Assembly: GCA_005239895.1 (NCBI GenBank) | Contig: SBBB01000025.1 | Location: 98,170 to 162,169, forward strand | Length of the DNA: 64,000 bases | From: a bacterium | GTDB taxonomy: Bacteria > Patescibacteriota > Patescibacteriia > SBBB01 | Direction of reading: 5' to 3' | The notes under the pieces: model-generated | What the model saw: only the letters and a program-made list of their open reading frames with translations | Database searches by the model: none | Told to the model about the DNA's origin: nothing | In this document: positions 2,205 to 57,107 of the stretch, one piece after another | How the letters are laid out: each line of letters begins with the position of its first letter | Position numbering within the stretch: the stretch's first letter is position 1 | Position numbers and translations under genes: made by a program

Positions 2205-2260
2205 ACGAATAAAGTTACCATTAACAAAATTATAACCTATTACTATCATTCCAGCCATTC

Positions 2261-2470
2261 TTGTCATTCCCGCGCTCCACCTGTCATTCCCGCGAAGGCG
2301 GGAATCCAGGAGCGTATACGTTTATAACTATTGTTTCAACTAATGTTAATATTAAACTACAATGTCAATGTTTAGGAGTTCAACTTCTAAACATTGTGTC
2401 ATACAGGTATTCTTTGAATAAACCTGGATTCCAGCCTTCGCGGGAATGACAAAAAGAGAAATAGGAATAA
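2261..2470. mobile_element. MITE-like element copy 1 (TIR CTGTCATTCCCGCGAAGGCGGGAATCCAGG; internal hairpin of the AATGTTTAG type)
   Basis: Left TIR at 2281-2310 and right TIR at 2423-2452 are reverse complements with one mismatch. The internal sequence resembles copies at 28141 and 40101. A partial tandem duplication of TGTCATTCCCGCG sits at 2261-2275. The + ORF 2261..2449 is only a translation of the repeat. Confidence 0.6.
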
Positions 2471-2513
2471 CAAAAAAATAAATTCTAATTTATTCTTAAT
2501 TCTGTTTTACTCT

Positions 2514-3803
2514 TTATAAACCATGCCTAGAAGCGCCACTACCACTTCCTCCGTGCGGAGAATGTTTGGACTGATTAGTTTTATCCGTAGCTAATAAATA
2601 ATCTTCTAGTACGCCCTTGGGATACCAAATACCAGTCCAACGATAAGCTTCACCCATTAACTGTTCATTGCTGTATTTATCTTTATAGTTTGTAAGCATA
2701 TATTTAAAGAATCCTCTCCAAGCTTTGGCATGTTTGCATCCACAATTTACAATAGCAGTTACAGTATTCGGACCACCGCAACAATAATTACACGTAAAGT
2801 TTGAAATTATGTCATCGTAGCGCTGCTGCAAATCACTGGTTAATTGAATTTGATTTTCAAAAACCATCCATTTATTTTGAGCTTCAATGGGATTATTAAA
2901 TGAAATATCATCCGGCGCATAAAACGGCTTTCCAGTTGGAATCATAACAACCCTAGCATCAGCTAGTAAATCTCCGGTATTGGGATTTGCTGGTACTTCA
3001 GTTATGGTGGGCTGAATGGTCAAAGATGTTGTCCTTCCATCTGAATTTAATTTAGGGGCAATAACAGAATAGGTAGCCTTATTAGATATGGAAAACAATC
3101 CTCTAAATTTTTCTTTAAAGCTTGAGTTCTGAAAAATATTATCAAAACCAATATTTATTCCAACCTTATTTGCTACGCGATTGATTAAGAAATAATTTAC
3201 AACAAACAACACGATTAATACGTACACAACTCTATTGTCAACTTTCTTTGCAATTTCCAGGTGTGTTTTCGCGCTGGAATCATAGGTTGTAATTTCACAT
3301 TCTCCGCAAGATTTTAATTGCTCAACTTTGCGACTTGCAAAAAACACCGACACCATAATTAAAACTAAACCAATTACTTGAAACTCTAGTCCTTTTAAGG
3401 GAAACAAAGCCACACCCGTTGTCACACCAAATAAAGATAATAAAAACGCCCCACAAATTGGGCACGCCACACCCAGGGCTGCCACTACAGCTCCTAACCA
3501 AGACGAAGCATCCGTACTAGGGCTAAATTTAGAACGGTTCCATAACCAAGACATCAAACCAATTGAAATTCCAAAAAATATAATCGTCAGGGTTGCGATA
3601 ATTAAATAAGCCACACTATAAGCTACACTATATTGACCAAAGTCTCCACCTTTAGTCATGGCTATAAAATTGGATACACTCGTAACCTGCGTAAATAAAA
3701 AATAGTAAACAACTAATAATATTAATCCGCCTATAATTGAGTTGCGGTAATAACGCTTATTTTCAAATGCTATTTTTAAACCCTGAATAGTTTGATGCAT
3801 CAT
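2514..3803 (-). CDS. Polytopic membrane protein with paired cysteines (CPIC within a TM region, CGEC loop, C-terminal CNYCCGG...CGC); putative thiol-disulfide oxidoreductase partner (DsbB/VKOR-like function inferred only)
   Basis: 429-aa ORF with several predicted hydrophobic helices and Cys pairs. Directly downstream of a multi-thioredoxin-fold protein on the same strand. Confidence 0.45.
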   Translation of the reverse strand: MMHQTIQGLKIAFENKRYYRNSIIGGLILLVVYYFLFTQVTSVSNFIAMTKGGDFGQYSVAYSVAYLIIATLTIIFFGISIGLMSWLWNRSKFSPSTDASSWLGAVVAALGVACPICGAFLLSLFGVTTGVALFPLKGLEFQVIGLVLIMVSVFFASRKVEQLKSCGECEITTYDSSAKTHLEIAKKVDNRVVYVLIVLFVVNYFLINRVANKVGINIGFDNIFQNSSFKEKFRGLFSISNKATYSVIAPKLNSDGRTTSLTIQPTITEVPANPNTGDLLADARVVMIPTGKPFYAPDDISFNNPIEAQNKWMVFENQIQLTSDLQQRYDDIISNFTCNYCCGGPNTVTAIVNCGCKHAKAWRGFFKYMLTNYKDKYSNEQLMGEAYRWTGIWYPKGVLEDYLLATDKTNQSKHSPHGGSGSGASRHGL

Positions 3804-7594: not shown

Positions 7595-7666
7595 ACTCAA
7601 CAGATATTCTAAAATAGAATTTTTAAACCATCTTTTAAATATTTTTAAAACCGCTCCTGTCATTCC

Positions 7667-7717
7667 AGCGACTTAACCAATGTTTGGTGGTTCGACCGCC
7701 AAACATTAATTCTATAA
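7667..7717. repeat. Half MITE-TIR (CTGTCATTCCAGCGA) fused to hairpin-B copy AATGTTTGGTGGTTCGACCGCCAAACATT
   Basis: Direct sequence match to the TIR family and to the palindromes at 8641 and 21769. Confidence 0.5.
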
Positions 7718-8640: not shown

Positions 8641-8669
8641 AATGTTTGGTGGTTCGACCGCCAAACATT
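8641..8669. repeat. Hairpin-B palindrome AATGTTTGGTGGTTCGACCGCCAAACATT
   Basis: Identical to the copies at 7689 and 21769. Confidence 0.5.
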
Positions 8670-13643: not shown

Positions 13644-13651
13644 AGTTAATG

Positions 13652-13732
13652 TTAGCTTCTTAGCTTTTTAGCTTCTTAGCTTTTTAGCTTTTTAGCTTTT
13701 TAGCTTGTAGCTTATTAGATTTTTAAATTTTA
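13652..13732. repeat. Tandem array (TAGCTTYTT)n of about 9 units
   Basis: ttagcttct tagcttttt agcttct tagcttttt agcttttt agcttttt... read directly. It is the inverted partner of the array at 14603-14665. Confidence 0.7.
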
Positions 13733-13752
13733 ATTCAATAAACTTTATAATT

Positions 13753-14307
13753 TTATAAACTGTCTACTTTCTTGACGTGTGACTGAATATAAGCGTGCAC
13801 TAGCGCGCTAATTTTATTTGAAATAATTTGGGGATCTGCAACTTGCTCAAAAACAAAACGGTTTTTTTCAGCCGCGGTTTGAATATACACATTACCGTAA
13901 TTAAATATCGTTGGCAAAATGCCGTTTATTTCTATGGTTACATCTTGAACATTACGAAAAGATAGCTCAGATGTCACCCTAGAAAAAACACCGTTTTGTT
14001 CCGTGTTTACTATACGTTCATTAGTAATAATCCAAACATCTAAGTAATAATCTATGAAAGCATGATATGCAAATAAACACACATAAATATAATACAAGCT
14101 AATTAAAAAAGCAACCAAGGCATACACCTCATCCGAAATATTATCTATAAAAATATTAAAATATATAGCTAGGCCATATAGAGCCACTGGTCCGATTGCT
14201 AATAATATCCAAAAGGAAATATATCCCAAAAATATAAGCCAATGGCGACGAACAAGCAATATAATTTCTTCATTGGGATTTTTGTGAGGAATATAATGTT
14301 TTATCAT
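13753..14307 (-). CDS. Membrane protein with a bacterial PH-like (DUF304/YdbS-like) domain
   Basis: EEIILLVRRHWLIFL followed by two TM helices and a beta-rich tail, typical of the bPH_2 family. Confidence 0.5.
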   Translation of the reverse strand: MIKHYIPHKNPNEEIILLVRRHWLIFLGYISFWILLAIGPVALYGLAIYFNIFIDNISDEVYALVAFLISLYYIYVCLFAYHAFIDYYLDVWIITNERIVNTEQNGVFSRVTSELSFRNVQDVTIEINGILPTIFNYGNVYIQTAAEKNRFVFEQVADPQIISNKISALVHAYIQSHVKKVDSL

Positions 14308-14542: not shown

Positions 14543-14602
14543 ATAAAGTTAAAAAGTCTAAAGCTTGTAAAGTTGTAGAGTTTATTGAATTAAAATTTAA
14601 AA

Positions 14603-14665
14603 ATCTAAGAAGCTACAAGCTAAAAAGCTAAGAAGCTAAAAAGCTAAGAAGCCAAGAAGCTATTT
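14603..14665. repeat. Tandem array (AAAAAGCTAAGAAGCTA)n, reverse complement of the array at 13652-13732
   Basis: About 90% identical to the reverse complement of 13652-13732, including the shared start AAAAATCTAA.AAGCTACAAGCTAAAAAGCTA. Confidence 0.7.
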
Positions 14666-15799: not shown

Positions 15800-15874
15800 G
15801 TATTAATATGCTAATATAATATAACTATTTAAACCTTCATAGTATAACTATTTAAATAACAACTGTCAAAAATC

Positions 15875-15899
15875 TACTTGGAAGTCCGACTTCCAAGTA
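15875..15899. repeat. REP-like hairpin TACTTGGAAGTCCGACTTCCAAGTA
   Basis: Perfect 10-bp arms with a 5-nt loop, the same family as 33065-33099 and 33520-33544. A GTAG motif is present on the minus strand. Confidence 0.55.
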
Positions 15900-21705: not shown

Positions 21706-21768
21706 AAAAAAATAATATTAATTATATTTATGTATTATAAATGATTTTAAGACATAATAGCAACTTAT

Positions 21769-21797
21769 ATGTTTGGTGGTTCGACCGCCAAACATTG
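21769..21797. repeat. Hairpin-B palindrome ATGTTTGGTGGTTCGACCGCCAAACAT
   Basis: Identical to the copies at 7689 and 8641. Confidence 0.5.
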
Positions 21798-22117: not shown

Positions 22118-22167
22118 AATGTTTGGGAGTTGAACTCCCAAACATTGATTACTCCCAAACATTGATT
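22118..22167. repeat. Hairpin-B variant CAATGTTTGGGAGTTGAACTCCCAAACATTG plus a partial duplication ACTCCCAAACATTGATT
   Basis: Outer stem conserved. The inner stem GGGAG/CTCCC co-varies relative to GGTGG/CCGCC in other copies. Confidence 0.5.
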
Positions 22168-25860: not shown

Positions 25861-25891
25861 TAATGTTTGGAGATCGGATCTCCAAACATTA
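25861..25891. repeat. Hairpin-B variant TAATGTTTGGAGATCGGATCTCCAAACATTA (plus a partial copy TAATGTTTG at 25846)
   Basis: Conserved outer stem; inner stem GGAGATC/GATCTCC co-varies. Confidence 0.5.
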
Positions 25892-28108: not shown

Positions 28109-28140
28109 TAGTCAAAACTCATTGTGTTTTATACTTAATT

Positions 28141-28330
28141 GTCATTCCCGCGAAGGCGGGAATCCAGGTTTATTCAAATATAAAAAATAAATAAAATTTA
28201 AACTTTTTTCAAAAAGTCCTCTATAAAAAAATAATTATTAGATTACAGTTGTAGTTTAATATTAATATTAATTGGTGCAATAATGATAAGTGTACATGCT
28301 TCTGGATTCCCGCCTTCGCGGGAATGACAA
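28141..28330. mobile_element. MITE-like element copy 2 (inverted orientation relative to copies 1 and 3)
   Basis: TIRs GTCATTCCCGCGAAGGCGGGAATCCAGG (28141-28168) and CTGGATTCCCGCCTTCGCGGGAATGAC (28302-28328). The internal sequence is the reverse complement of copy 1/3 internal sequence. Lies between livK and livF. Confidence 0.65.
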
Positions 28331-33064: not shown

Positions 33065-33099
33065 GAAGCTACTTGGAAGTTTCGCTTCCAAGTAGCTTC
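33065..33099. repeat. REP-like hairpin GAAGCTACTTGGAAG-TTTCG-CTTCCAAGTAGCTTC overlapping the RayT stop codon
   Basis: Perfect 15-bp arms; contains GTAG; sits immediately 3' of the transposase gene. Confidence 0.6.
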
Positions 33100-33767
33100 T
33101 AATCGACTTCTAAAGCTTTTTTTCTAGACTGTGTGTCCTGCCAAGATTCTATAGCAAAGTCTAGATATATTTTTGGGTTTTTAAATTGATCTAATATAAT
33201 TTTTGTATCACATAAACCTTTCTCGTTTTTAATATATTCTTCTAAGCTAGATTTACTTAAACTAAGAATTTTATTTCCGGATTTATCTCGATTGTTCATA
33301 TTTATATAAGCGCTTAAATGAATCAGGTATCGATTATCAGATATATGTTTTGATTGAAAATTCCCCTGAAATAACACACCATTTCTTTTATATTTTTCAT
33401 TGAAATATTTAGTATAACCACCAATCCGTTGCATAAATTTTTCAATTCCTTTTTCTACAACAGGGGTGATAAGAAAATGAAAATGGTTTGGATTTATACA
33501 AAAAGCTATAATTGAAACCAACTTGGAAGTTTCGCTTCCAAGTTTTTCTTTGTCTTTTTTAAAAGAAAATTCATAAATACTCCCAATGGGTTCTAATCTA
33601 TTAAAATCTTTTATACTTTTTAACAAACGATCTAAATCAAATTTATCAAGAATTATTTTTCTTTTATCAACACCACGATTGTATATGTGATAATATTCTC
33701 CAATAATAAATTCATGTTTTCTAGTACTCATAAATAAATAATAACATATTTGGTTAATTAGTAACAA
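33099..33767 (-). CDS. IS200/IS605-like HUH Y1 transposase of the REP-associated (RayT-like) type
   Basis: YHIYNRGVDKRKIIL, HUH motif NHFHFLITP, and GVLFQGNFQSKHISDNRYLIHLSAYINMN (matching the G.LWQGR.KS...YL..RYIELNP pattern of RayT/TnpA-REP). The real start is probably the second Met (MSTRKHEF). Confidence 0.65.
   Translation of the reverse strand: MLLINQICYYLFMSTRKHEFIIGEYYHIYNRGVDKRKIILDKFDLDRLLKSIKDFNRLEPIGSIYEFSFKKDKEKLGSETSKLVSIIAFCINPNHFHFLITPVVEKGIEKFMQRIGGYTKYFNEKYKRNGVLFQGNFQSKHISDNRYLIHLSAYINMNNRDKSGNKILSLSKSSLEEYIKNEKGLCDTKIILDQFKNPKIYLDFAIESWQDTQSRKKALEVD
33520..33544. repeat. REP-like hairpin AACTTGGAAGTTTCGCTTCCAAGTT located inside the RayT coding sequence
   Basis: Encodes LGSETSKL in frame; same core as the 33065 and 15875 copies. 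Confidence 0.5.
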
Positions 33768-33813
33768 CCACTTAGGAGCAAGGCACCTAAGTTAGTAGGA
33801 AGTAACTCTCAGT

Positions 33814-34698
33814 TTACAATTTATACTCCCCTATTAAGCCTTGCGGCCTATAAAGCATTAATAAAATTAAAATAACTCCATATACTACTTGCCTCATTTG
33901 AGCGGCTATGTCTGGTGGAAAACCAACAAAACGCAAAATTTCAGGCAATAATATTAAAAACAATGCTCCCAAAACTGCGCCACGCAAATTAGCTAGTCCT
34001 CCTAAAATAATAATAGCTAGAATAAATATGGATTCGTGTATAGTAAAACTAGTGGGGTCAATAAATGTAATATAAGAAGCGAAAAGCGAACCAGCGATGG
34101 ATGCCATAACAGCAGCCACAATAAAAATCATTAATTTAAAATATAAAACATTGTAACCAAAGACCTCTATGGCCTTTTCATCTTCTCTAATAGCTTTCAA
34201 AACCCTACCAAACGAAGAATTAATTATAAAATATGACAAATAATAAATTAAAATTAAAAACGCAAAAGTAAGAATTAAAAATGCGAAATTATTCGAAATT
34301 AAAAATTGGAAATTAAAAATTTTTATTTCCGGTCTAGCAATGCCTGGTATACCCAAAGGCCCTCTCGTAACACTTTGCCAATTTAATAAAATCGCAAAAA
34401 TAATAGTATTAAAACCCAAAGTGCCCAAAGCATAATAATCGCCTTTAAATTTTGATAATACTAAACCAATCAACAAACTAATAACAGCGGTTATAATCAT
34501 GCCCAATATAATTGAAACAAAAAATCCCAATTTAAATTGAGTTAATAAAATAGCGGTAGTATAAGCTCCAATACCATAAAAAGCAGCATGAGTTACAGAT
34601 AACAATCCAGTATAACCTACAACTAAATTTAAGCTAACCACAAGCATGGCGTAAATAGCGAACAAAATTGAGAGATGAACTAAGTATTCCATAAACAA
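33814..34698 (-). CDS. livM: Branched-chain amino acid ABC transporter permease LivM
   Basis: Polytopic permease with the LivM-type pattern GYTGLLSVTHAAFYGIGAYT. Confidence 0.8.
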   Translation of the reverse strand: MFMEYLVHLSILFAIYAMLVVSLNLVVGYTGLLSVTHAAFYGIGAYTTAILLTQFKLGFFVSIILGMIITAVISLLIGLVLSKFKGDYYALGTLGFNTIIFAILLNWQSVTRGPLGIPGIARPEIKIFNFQFLISNNFAFLILTFAFLILIYYLSYFIINSSFGRVLKAIREDEKAIEVFGYNVLYFKLMIFIVAAVMASIAGSLFASYITFIDPTSFTIHESIFILAIIILGGLANLRGAVLGALFLILLPEILRFVGFPPDIAAQMRQVVYGVILILLMLYRPQGLIGEYKL

Positions 34699-34700
34699 TA

Positions 34701-34842
34701 AAACCCTAAACTCTAAACACTAAATACTAAACACTAAACAAAATAATTATAACACAAACTTTATACTCTAAATCTACCACAAATTCCACTATAAGCAAAA
34801 GAATAAACCCTAAACTCTAAACAAACTTAAAAACTAAAATAC
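34701..34842. repeat. Two direct copies of AAACCCTAAACTCTAAACA, the first extended into a (ACTAAAY)n array
   Basis: 34701-34744 and 34805-34842 read directly. Inverted partner at 35211-35255. Confidence 0.6.
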
Positions 34843-35205
34843 TTACGATCTACATTTTTCTACTATAGAACCAAAAATCTTCATCAGCTCAGTAACTTCC
34901 TGAATCAACTCATCTTTCTCTCTATGTTGATCTAACTTAGGCTCACTTAAAACCAACCAATACCTACTTTCTTTAGCTTCTTTCCTAGATATTTTTATTC
35001 TCATAATAAAATCTTTTTTACTTAATGATTCTTCGACTTCAATATAATTAGCCCCCACTGATCCAGCCGATCTAACCAATTGCTTACCAATTTCAATATT
35101 AGATATAGTTTTGGATAAATTATTTACATAAACATTAGCTCTCTTAGCAAATTTAAGAGTTCTGTCCCCTAAGTCATATTGTTTTGTATTTTGAATTTTG
35201 ATCAT
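34843..35205 (-). CDS. Four-helix-bundle protein of the 23S rRNA intervening-sequence protein family
   Basis: RSAGSVGANYIEVEES...SRKEAKESRYWL matches the TIGR02436/PF05635 signature (GS..SI..NIAEG...E..YWL). Inserted between livH and livM. Confidence 0.65.
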   Translation of the reverse strand: MIKIQNTKQYDLGDRTLKFAKRANVYVNNLSKTISNIEIGKQLVRSAGSVGANYIEVEESLSKKDFIMRIKISRKEAKESRYWLVLSEPKLDQHREKDELIQEVTELMKIFGSIVEKCRS

Positions 35206-35210
35206 TTGAA

Positions 35211-35255
35211 TTTGTTTAGTGTTTAAAATTTAGTATTTAGTGTTTTATTTTCTAA
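35211..35255. repeat. (GTTTAGT)n array, reverse complement of the 34701-34744 array; overlaps the livH stop
   Basis: TTTGTTTAGTGTTTAAAATTTAGTATTTAGTGTTTT is the reverse complement of AAAACACTAAATACTAAATTTTAAACACTAAACAAA. Confidence 0.6.
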
Positions 35256-36117
35256 TGATTCCGGTCGGTCTGAATATCAAAAATAGTATTAATAATCCAA
35301 AAGCAATGGCATCTTTCCATTCTCCGGATATTTTCCAAATACCAAAATTTTCTACAAAACCTAAAATAAACGCGCCCAGCACACCACCAAAAATACTCCC
35401 AATTCCACCAACAATAGAAGCAATAACACCCTTAAGCAGCAATCCTAATCCCATAGTTGGTTCAATACCAGTATCAAAACCAACTAAAATACCAGTTAAT
35501 CCAGCAATAGCTGAACCTATAAAAAACACCACACTGATTATCTTGTTAGTATTAATGCCAACTATTTTGGCTACTTCTTCATCGTCAGTCACAGCTCTGA
35601 CAGCTTTACCAAATTTAGTTTTATAAAGAAACAAAATCAGTCCGCATGCAACTGCAATAGCAGATATTAAAATAATCAGTTGGGTTTGAGTTATTAAACC
35701 ACCGAAAATATTAAAAATTTTTGAAGTGTCAATGTTAAATGAAAGCGTTTGAAATTGACTTGTAAATAAAATAGCAATTATGGCTTGAATGGCTGTAAAA
35801 GTTCCCAATGAAGCTACTAATAAAACCATACTGGACGCTTTTCTTTTTCTAAGCGGTAAATAAATAATTTTATCTAAAGCATAACCAAATAAACCAGTAA
35901 TTATAATACCTAAAACAACAGCTAGATATAAATTTAAACCCAAGGTTTTAGTAAAATAAAAAACTGAATAGCCAGCTATAGTTGCCATTACTCCGTGCGC
36001 TAGGTTAAAAAATTTAGTAACTCCGTAAATTAAATTAAAACCCAGAGAAATTAAAGCATAAACTGCTCCGGCAATAAGACTATTTAAAACCAATTGAGAA
36101 AAAATAGACATAGACAA
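35245..36117 (-). CDS. livH: Branched-chain amino acid ABC transporter permease LivH
   Basis: LivH-like polytopic permease (LNSLIAGAVYALISLGFNLIYG...). Confidence 0.85.
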   Translation of the reverse strand: MSMSIFSQLVLNSLIAGAVYALISLGFNLIYGVTKFFNLAHGVMATIAGYSVFYFTKTLGLNLYLAVVLGIIITGLFGYALDKIIYLPLRKRKASSMVLLVASLGTFTAIQAIIAILFTSQFQTLSFNIDTSKIFNIFGGLITQTQLIILISAIAVACGLILFLYKTKFGKAVRAVTDDEEVAKIVGINTNKIISVVFFIGSAIAGLTGILVGFDTGIEPTMGLGLLLKGVIASIVGGIGSIFGGVLGAFILGFVENFGIWKISGEWKDAIAFGLLILFLIFRPTGIIRK

Positions 36118-36196: not shown

Positions 36197-36245
36197 TGTC
36201 ATTCCCGCGAAGGCGGGAATCCAGGAGCGTATTCAACGTGTAACC
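36197..36245. mobile_element. Solo MITE end (TIR CTGTCATTCCCGCGAAGGCGGGAATCCAGGAGCGTA plus about 15 nt), no partner TIR
   Basis: Identical to the copy-1 left TIR through AGCGTAT, then diverges; no right TIR within 300 bp. Confidence 0.55.
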
Positions 36246-39268: not shown

Positions 39269-40042
39269 CTATTTGATTAATAACCAAACTGGACAATGGT
39301 CGGATCCAAAATAATGATTCATAATACCAATATCATTAATTTTAGAAATAATGTTAGCGTCCGCGAAAAAATAATCTATACGCCAACCAATGTTTCTATC
39401 TCTCGCAAATGTTTTCATATCCCAATAAGTATAAGCATCTTTTTGATGGGGATAAAATTTTCTAAATACATCTATAAATTCATTCGCAACTACTTTATCA
39501 ATCCACGCGCGCTCTACGGGTAAAAAACCAGTGTTGTGTTCATTATCTTTAGGCCGAGCTAAATCCATTGGCGTGTGCGCGGTATTAATATCTCCACAAA
39601 AAATCACCCGCTCCCCTTTTTCTCTTAATTTCAAAATAAAATTTAAAAAAGCATCATAAAATTCTAATTTATATCGTAAACGCTCTGGACCTTGCCCGCC
39701 ATTAGGACAATAAATATTTATTAAAGTAAAATTTTTATATTTAGCAATAATCACCCGCCCCTCTTCGTCAAACTTTTTAATACCAATTCCGTACAAAACC
39801 TCTTGGGGTTTTTCTTTAGTATAAATTGCCACACCACTATAGCCTTTTTTAATCTCCGAAGAAGAAAAATATGAAGTATATCCTACTACATCTTTTATAA
39901 ACACATCTAATTGCTCAGGGCTAGCCTTGGTTTCTTGTAAACAAACAATATCGGGTTTAAAATCTTTAAATAACGGATCAAAAAAACCTTGCTTAACAGT
40001 CGCTCTTAAACCATTAGTGTTCCAAGAAATAATTTTTAACAT
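39269..40042 (-). CDS. xth: Exodeoxyribonuclease III (Xth/ExoA family)
   Basis: MLKIISWNTNGLRA...CLQETK...GDINTAHTPMDL...SDHCPV are Exo III motifs. The ORF-track N-terminus (MCTLLDSRLRGNDREK...) is read-through into the MITE TIR, so the start is set at the internal Met. Confidence 0.85.
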   Translation of the reverse strand: MLKIISWNTNGLRATVKQGFFDPLFKDFKPDIVCLQETKASPEQLDVFIKDVVGYTSYFSSSEIKKGYSGVAIYTKEKPQEVLYGIGIKKFDEEGRVIIAKYKNFTLINIYCPNGGQGPERLRYKLEFYDAFLNFILKLREKGERVIFCGDINTAHTPMDLARPKDNEHNTGFLPVERAWIDKVVANEFIDVFRKFYPHQKDAYTYWDMKTFARDRNIGWRIDYFFADANIISKINDIGIMNHYFGSDHCPVWLLIK

Positions 40043-40100
40043 AGTGTTATTTAAAATTTTTAATATATAATTTATACATTGTTGTGTTTCTACCTTCTCC

Positions 40101-40334
40101 CTGTCATTCCCGCGCAGGCGGGAATCCAGGAGCGTGCACATTTATCACCCTTGATCAAATTAATGTTAACATTAAACTACAACTACAATCCAGTAATTAA
40201 TTTTTTACAATATATTTTTTCAAATAAATCTAAAATCTATATTATTTTTATTGGTTAAAAATATATAATCGGTATTATTTGAACAAACCTGGATTCCCGC
40301 CTGCGCGGGAATGACAAAAAAATAGGAATGACGG
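40101..40334. mobile_element. MITE-like element copy 3 (TIR variant CGCGCAGGCGGG with matching compensatory change in the right TIR)
   Basis: Left TIR 40101-40130, right TIR 40289-40318 followed by AAAAAATAGGAATGAC as in copy 1. Internal TAATGTTAACATTAAACTACAA is shared with copies 1 and 2. Confidence 0.65.
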
Positions 40335-57003: not shown

Positions 57004-57107
57004 ATTTTATATTCTATGAAATATAGAACTGCTTGTCAATTTTATTTGAACTGCCGTGAGTCCATTTAGTAGTTTCGCTACTAAGTAACTATAATTAATC
57101 TCGAAAT

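Follow-up and report, generated by a model that had tools for sequence, protein, structure and literature searches.

Convergent CGTC-1/NTS-type hairpin doublets with long, partly conserved spacers in a Patescibacteria genome

The 64,000-nt stretch of DNA analyzed here (the window) carries three pairs of inverted 29-nt hairpins and one truncated element. These are almost certainly convergent doublets of CGTC-1 REP/NTS-type hairpins, a known class of repeats in a new host lineage. The doublets have unusually long, partly conserved and mosaic spacers. Their best explanation, which we hold with moderate confidence, is a tie to Ssn-type processing of single-stranded DNA (ssDNA) in this Patescibacteria genome. 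Earlier descriptions of the CGTC-1/NTS repeat come mainly from Pseudomonadati; its range is here extended to Patescibacteria, where it forms doublets with a long, partly conserved spacer.

Repeat inventory and genomic setting

A search with the 29-mer TGTCATTCCCGCGAAGGCGGGAATCCAGG gave seven matches with at most one mismatch in the window (0.00 in 100 shuffles), organized as three inverted pairs and one lone site. The first-pass annotation had described three full copies and one solo end sharing a terminal inverted repeat (TIR) and an internal core, with copy 2 inverted, and this description was borne out. The core TAATGTTAAYATTAAACTACAA is present once in each of the three full copies, and its orientation (minus strand in copy 2) shows copies 1 and 3 to run one way and copy 2 the other. 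The spacers between paired arms are AT-rich and 112-157 nt long.

In copy 1, the left arm (2282-2310, plus strand) is an exact 29-mer, an NTS/CGTC-1 REP hairpin composed of the tag TGTC, the stem ATTCCCGC/GCGGGAAT, the loop GAAG and the tail CCAGG. The spacer (2311-2422, plus strand; 112 nt, 27% GC) comprises a left module (AGCGTATAC...TAATGTTAATATTAAACTACAA, with the core at 2341-2362), a nested copy of a second hairpin, hairpin B (around 2367-2395), and a right module (GGTATTCTTTGAATAAA). The right arm (2423-2451, minus strand) has one mismatch, a G to T change (GGCTGGAAT). Two 5' half-sites are stacked upstream of the left arm (2247-2274, plus strand), TCATTCCAGCC at 2247 and TGTCATTCCCGCG at 2262-2274, each followed by a pyrimidine-rich linker of 5-8 nt. 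Outside the right arm, a degenerate half-site (GTTATTCCTA; 2462-2471, minus strand) is part of a right-flank extension common to copies 1 and 3. Copy 2 consists of an arm adjoining the TTTATTCAAA module (28140-28168, plus strand), a spacer of 132 nt and 17% GC (28169-28300, minus strand; core at 28249-28270) and an arm adjoining the AGCATGTAC module (28301-28329, minus strand); its two arms differ at the last base, which is A instead of G in the latter. In copy 3, the left arm (40102-40130, plus strand) and the right arm (40288-40316, minus strand) both have the loop variant GCAG (GCGCAGGCG / CGCCTGCGC). They enclose a spacer of 157 nt and 20% GC (40131-40287, plus strand), whose core (40161-40182) contains a perfect 16-bp palindrome, TTAATGTTAACATTAA, and a half-site (GTCATTCCTA; 40323-40332, minus strand) lies outside the right arm. 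The lone site (36197-36245, plus strand) contains a full arm (36197-36225) and about 20-25 nt of the left module. It is identical to the left end of copy 1 over 36 bases before the similarity decays, and is thus a truncated element.

Alignment divided the spacers into three parts, namely a left module that extends over about 56 nt and shows 75-77% identity among the copies, a middle that varies, and a short right module, GGTATTATTTGAAYAAA; the modules adjoin the arms as AGCGTAT... and ...TTTGAATAAA. The arms are 96% identical in pairwise comparison and the spacers, with 17-27% GC, 56-66% identical over all alignment columns. The hairpins themselves thus seem to be constrained or renewed, since a recent transposon burst would not produce such a difference. 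The spacer core contains a 16-bp palindrome, TTAATRTT/AAYATTAA (2339-2356; 28253-28268, minus strand; 40159-40174), in which a single pair varies: copy 1 has G-T at this place, copy 2 has A-T and copy 3 has G-C. The palindrome could bind a dimeric protein or form a small hairpin, three sequences being too few to judge.

Hairpin B forms a family of its own, with copies at 7679-7707, 8641-8669, 21768-21796, 22118-22146 and 25862-25890 in addition to the one nested in copy 1. Its structure is AATGTTTGG-(3-4 nt)-loop-(3-4 nt)-CCAAACATT, with a constant outer stem and an inner stem that varies with compensating changes (GTGG/CCGC, GGAG/CTCC, GAGA/TCTC and AGGAG/CTTCT). This covariation is clearer than anything in the NTS arms. 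An isolated 5' half-site (TGTCATTCCAGCG; 7658-7670, plus strand) is located 8 nt upstream of the hairpin-B copy at 7679-7707. The half TIR that the first-pass annotation had noticed beside hairpin B is therefore real, and its position is 7658-7670 rather than 7667.

The window has a GC content of 32% and contains a one-piece tmRNA. The best named relatives of its proteins are 41-53% identical and belong to Uhrbacteria, Pacebacteria, Daviesbacteria, Magasanikbacteria and the "Patescibacteria group", which places the host in the candidate phyla radiation (CPR)/Patescibacteria. All seven sites are intergenic. Each of the three doublets lies between minus-strand genes of the same direction, 45-68 nt past the upstream stop codon, and the truncated copy at 36197 lies between divergent genes, in a divergent promoter region.

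Other features of the window were also recorded. A 429-aa membrane protein is encoded at 2514-3803; in relatives, its homologue and a thioredoxin-like neighbor are found in clusters resembling those for copper or mercury resistance, which contain Cu-oxidase, P-type ATPase, MerR and DsbA genes. From this context, the uncharacterized pair may have a function related to metals or disulfides. A 23S_rRNA_IVP (four-helix-bundle) gene (34843-35205) is positioned between two branched-chain amino-acid ABC permease genes; with inverted repeats of 50 nt on either side (34693-34742 / 35211-35260), it resembles an inserted cassette. Finally, inverted repeats of 110 nt (13650-13770 / 14553-14662; 89% complementary), made of tandem 8-nt TTAGCTTY units, bracket an ORF at 13753-14307.

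The arm hairpin and its association with ssnA genes

When folded alone as ssDNA, the arm forms the 8-bp stem ATTCCCGC/GCGGGAAT with a GAAG tetraloop (GCAG in copy 3), a CCAG tail and an additional lower CCTG/CAGG stem, with an energy of about -12 kcal/mol (-12.2 for the left arm of copy 1). The G to T change in the right arm of copy 1 breaks the hairpin of that arm (-4.6 versus -12.2 kcal/mol). The stems are perfect in six of the seven arms, and the tag TGTC is present at every site (7/7). Whole elements fold with a z-score of about -10.8.

These features correspond to those of a described repeat. CGTC-1 REPs have an 8-bp stem starting with AT, a 4-nt loop, a CCA tail and a CGTC tag that is often TGTC (Di Nocera et al. 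2013, PMC3733652). They mostly form inverted homodimers, whose spacers measure 20-100 bp and are frequently conserved, and they correspond to dRS3 of Neisseria and RPE-6 of Rickettsia conorii. The same 2013 survey reported CGTC repeats in five phyla, CPR not being among them, and found "no dedicated transposase" for CGTC-1 (PMC3733652). More recently, the 28-nt NTS (CGTCATTCCCGCGMAVGCGGGAATCYRG) and a degenerate pattern, the Ssn-related motif (SRM), were defined (2025, PMC11893778). The SRM pattern fits all seven sites of the window, for 0.04 expected. Six of the seven also agree with the NTS consensus in 27 of its 28 positions, the exception being T instead of C at the first base.

The NTS is the substrate of SsnA, a 94-aa GIY-YIG protein (cd10448) of Neisseria meningitidis, which binds and cuts the hairpin only as ssDNA, in one orientation only and a few bases 5' of the motif (PMC11893778). 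Such binding and cutting were demonstrated for the Neisseria and Wolbachia enzymes, and ssnA genes are typically bracketed by the NTS/SRM motif. The demonstrated role of Ssn is to restrict transforming ssDNA, while the spreading of repeats by Ssn is a hypothesis only (PMC11893778).

The motif is widely distributed. The exact 29-mer was found in at least 120 metagenome contigs, with GC contents of 0.33-0.69, and in at least 120 IMG/VR viral contigs. Extended by the adjoining AGCRT, it was found in six unrelated genomes, including MAGs labelled Bdellovibrionales, Comamonadaceae, Deltaproteobacteria and Saccharibacteria. A plasmid collection gave only two matches (Azospirillum and Photobacterium) and was uninformative. 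Of 26 close pairs in the metagenome contigs, 23 are convergent doublets, which are also the dominant form across 246 NTS-bearing loci. Their spacers have a median of 37-54 nt and range from 18 to 248 nt, so that the spacers of the window, in the upper tail of this range, are long but not unique.

SsnA homologues were detected by phmmer and the Pfam GIY-YIG profile in 10 of these 246 loci (about 1.7 Mb). Seven or eight of the ten ssnA genes are directly bracketed by the motif, in the order arm, 10-45 nt, ssnA, with a stop codon that overlaps the opposite arm. Flanking SRM variants were likewise present in a further set of 39 ssnA loci, taken from IMG/VR. The left arms beside ssnA continue as CCAG(G/T)AGC, as do the left arms of the window (CCAGGAGCGT). 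Some ssnA homologues elsewhere are flanked by other hairpin variants (GTCATTGCGAGG..., GTCATCCCGGGCTTGACCCGGGAT and GTCATTGCCCGGCTTGACCGGGCAA), and some ssnA loci have the opposite arrangement, with the tails outward.

No ssnA homologue was found by regular expression or phmmer in the window or in a near-identical 5.4-kb Logan contig, which carries copy 1 and is the sole near-identical sequence found. The loci searched contained no NTS-ssnA-NTS unit that had the spacer of the window or came from an AT-rich relative, and the sole AT-rich ssnA unit found carries a different SRM variant. When compared by blastn with 127 loci, the spacers matched only the near-identical Logan contig and nothing outside this organism, and a pattern joining arm to core had no match in the metagenome contigs. 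No coding remnants of ssnA were detected in the spacers; a ...TTGAA(n)CCTGG junction shared by spacers and ssnA and the arm reading frame PGF(P/Q)P(S/A)RE* were considered as remnants and rejected as too short to count. In the nearest accessible relatives (50-53% amino-acid identity), synteny is lost downstream of the 429-aa gene and no empty site was found; about 55 kb of sequence from three relatives lacks the SRM motif. Given the lack of ssnA in the window, spacers unmatched elsewhere and relatives sharing neither synteny nor motif, the link to an Ssn enzyme in this genome, the origin of the doublets by deletion from an NTS-ssnA-NTS unit and the mobility of the elements are putative.

A mechanism can be proposed, to which we give about even chances. 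In the folding computed here, each arm forms on ssDNA an 8-bp stem with a tetraloop and a short lower stem. The hairpin would be the substrate of a putative Ssn-family GIY-YIG nuclease (cd10448) of this genome, which would bind it in one orientation only and cut it a few bases 5' of the tag. Two inverted arms, with tags outward and CCAG tails inward, would then provide one cleavable site per strand at the outer edges of the element. This geometry is the same as that of the motifs bracketing ssnA elsewhere, which is why the three copies can be read as nuclease-less, presumably non-autonomous versions of an NTS-ssnA-NTS unit with a lineage-specific AT-rich spacer. They may be duplicated or maintained by hairpin-directed ssDNA processing or recombination rather than by cut-and-paste DDE transposition. 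The arms would be the recognized and selected part of the element; conserved arms beside drifting spacers are the observed pattern, of which such selection is the putative cause.

A more specific version, in which the three copies are miniature NTS-ssnA-NTS derivatives that an Ssn nuclease from another part of the genome mobilizes in trans, is conceivable but doubtful. If true, it would be direct evidence that Ssn/NTS is a class of self-propagating mobile elements using a GIY-YIG single-strand nuclease, and that this class reaches even the reduced, DNA-uptake-dependent genomes of Patescibacteria. Ssn/NTS would also have its own MITE-like offspring, and the stacked 5' half-hairpins (about 5% of sites in unrelated genomes) would be by-products. 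These half-hairpins consist of GTCATTCCCGC(G) and a pyrimidine-rich linker of 6-10 nt directly upstream of a full NTS (2247-2281, 2452-2472 and 40317-40332 in the window). The same arrangement was observed at 10 of 180 NTS sites in unrelated contigs, sometimes as exact 21-nt tandem units. To our knowledge, nothing described for Ssn or REPs accounts for them.

Transposition, host function and decay as alternative explanations

The first-pass annotation had interpreted the elements as a MITE-like family with compensatory TIR evolution. Like MITEs, they are small and non-coding and have terminal inverted repeats; this interpretation is right in that the repeat is real and has inverted 29-nt ends, an interior conserved in part and several copies, one of them truncated. 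These features would also be expected of a classical MITE, an internally deleted DDE-transposase IS moved by cut-and-paste, for which the 29-nt ends would be transposase binding sites. However, the check for target-site duplications suggested with that interpretation was negative at all three copies in any register (flanks ACC/AAA, AAT/AGG and CCC/AAA). No transposase or transposon with these ends was found in the 64-kb window, and in other genomes ssnA is the only coding unit found with such ends. The "TIR" is itself a self-complementary, self-folding hairpin, of a family that occurs across phyla both singly and in short doublets, and the arms are far more conserved than the interiors, the opposite of a recent burst. 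An origin as a classical MITE is therefore highly improbable.

Compensatory evolution of the arms did not stand either. The matching change reported in both TIRs of copy 3 is present in both arms, but this A to C change sits in the unpaired tetraloop, at the A/C-variable position that the NTS consensus writes as M (PMC11893778), and the other two arm differences (copy 1 right arm and copy 2) are unmatched. Two of the seven arms are C-type, and they would end up in the same pair by chance with a probability of 3/21 = 0.14. Among 50 doublets of other genomes, loop concordance was 13/16 versus 10.3 expected (P = 0.09, not significant), a test confounded by genome-specific loop preferences. That CGTC-1 dimers are mostly homodimers had already been described (Di Nocera et al. 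2013, PMC3733652).

The doublet architecture is also the definition of a REPIN, and mobilization of the doublets by a RAYT (Y1/HUH) transposase has a precedent in Neisseria, where it was proposed for the identical ATTCCCGCGCAGGCGGGAATC; this repeat was assigned to a group-2 RAYT by Bertels and Rainey (bioRxiv 10.1101/2021.07.10.451892). RAYT-type mobility likewise leaves no target-site duplication, and the window does contain a RAYT-like Y1_Tnp gene (33099-33767, minus strand). Nevertheless, this gene is flanked by, and contains, a different hairpin of GTAG type, not TGTC: the hairpins have the form ACTTGGAAG-CGAAA-CTTCCAAGT(AG) or ACTTGGAAG-CGAAA-CTTCCAAGTAG, with the GTAG-type hairpin AGCTACTTGGAAGCGAAACTTCCAAGTAGCT on the 3' side of the gene, and the locus spans 33066-33800. 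Moreover, no RAYT flanked by CGTC repeats was reported by Di Nocera et al. (PMC3733652), and the 246 NTS-bearing loci (about 1.7 Mb) gave no Y1 match, versus 10 SsnA matches, when searched with the Y1 protein of the window and an E. coli RAYT sequence. We consequently consider mobilization by a RAYT unlikely. The Y1_Tnp ORF holds an in-frame copy of the same GTAG-type hairpin (33516-33543, coding for KLGSETSKL), further copies are located at 15871-15898 and 57059-57086, and the RAYT-like protein had no match in a PDB sequence search. The locus looks like a REPtron in a CPR genome, with a REP inserted in the transposase itself and a separate repeat family.

Two other explanations do not call for present mobility of the doublets. 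The hairpins could be structural RNA or DNA elements of the host, transcribed to stabilize or process mRNA (with an RNase III-type long stem) or punctuating operons, their copies arising by ordinary recombination. The stems are indeed long and very stable, and the location of the doublets between same-direction genes, 45-68 nt past the stop codon, is typical of REPs (PMC3733652). This role is compatible with the Ssn-linked explanation, but as an account of its own it is quite improbable, given that both orientations relative to transcription occur and that there is neither a terminator-like T-run (no terminator-like site at any of the three copies in the search for intrinsic terminators) nor a promoter signal above background. 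An inward promoter seen by eye in the left module (TTGnnn-16-TAAACT) was dropped, as it did not exceed shuffles. An identical 29-mer across genomes of 33%-69% GC is also hard to explain by host RNA function alone. Alternatively, the doublets could be decaying and now inert relics of an NTS-ssnA unit that was acquired horizontally and lost its nuclease. The lack of ssnA in 64 kb, the damaged arm, the truncated copy, the divergence of the spacers (about 20-40%) and the absence of the motif from about 55 kb of three relatives are consistent with decay. Yet six of the seven arms are perfect or differ only at the tolerated loop position or the last position despite the diverged spacers, which argues for continuing constraint or renewal and makes inert relics an unlikely account.

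Annotation effects and comparison with known systems

The prediction that read-through translation of the TIR creates spurious ORFs was confirmed. The 62-aa ORF at 2261-2449 (plus strand, TTG start), translated from copy 1, belongs to no Pfam family and has no homologue among 5.8 billion proteins. The longest xth ORF starts at an ATG (40141-40139, minus strand) placed in the left arm of copy 3. The Exo_endo_phos profile begins at residue 38 of this 290-aa ORF, beside the internal Met34, so the 33-codon N-terminal extension (40043-40141, minus strand) is spurious, as had been proposed; the true xth start is most likely the Met at 40042. It had also been expected that annotation pipelines would mis-call such elements, and a public gene caller did place a 54-aa product inside copy 1 on the Logan contig. 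One end of this contig falls in copy 1 and the opposite end in hairpin B, as expected where repeats of at least 29-36 identical bases break an assembly. In this CPR genome, the hairpins thus give rise to false ORFs (SFPR..., CHSREGGNP and RLRGNDRE peptides), extend N-termini falsely and break assemblies; such artifacts would disappear if the NTS/SRM pattern were masked before genes are called. If a cognate ssnA exists in the genome, the organism would offer a small and simple setting to ask whether Ssn nucleases propagate their own repeats, and whether Ssn polices incoming ssDNA in organisms that rely on DNA uptake.

Among known systems, the NTS/SRM-SsnA system of Neisseria meningitidis (PMC11893778) shares the hairpin itself, the arm sequence being identical to the consensus CGTCATTCCCGCGMAVGCGGGAATCYRG except for T instead of C at the first base, as well as the intergenic location and the inverted arrangement seen around ssnA genes. 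It differs in that the host of the window is a member of Patescibacteria with 32% GC, without ssnA in the window, and that the arms enclose a non-coding spacer of 112-157 nt instead of a gene or a short spacer. CGTC-1 REPs (PMC3733652) have in common with the repeats of the window the (C/T)GTC tag, the 8-bp stem starting with AT, the 4-nt loop, the CCA tail, the inverted homodimers and the conserved spacers. They also lie between same-direction genes and give spurious small ORFs. The spacers of the window, however, are longer than the customary 20-100 bp, and an unrelated second hairpin repeat is present in one of them.

The NIMEs, RS segments flanked by dRS3, likewise have interiors of 50-150 bp bounded by inverted ATTCCC-N8-GGGAAT. 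Their interiors are mosaic too, as in the window, where hairpin B is nested in copy 1. NIMEs form long arrays of many units, whereas the window has one doublet per locus, with interiors unrelated to the Neisseria RS. REPIN-RAYT systems share with the window doublets the two inverted REPs that form one long hairpin, the non-autonomous nature and the lack of target-site duplications, and a single-copy partner gene is expected. In contrast, the spacers of the window are at or above the usual limit, the tag is TGTC rather than GTAG and the RAYT-like gene of the window goes with another hairpin family. Correia elements, which are MITEs, resemble the window copies in being short, non-coding and intergenic, in having inverted ends and in disturbing annotation, but they have TA target duplications and ends that do not self-fold, whereas the elements described here consist of self-folding arms, with neither a target-site duplication nor a cognate DDE transposon in the window.
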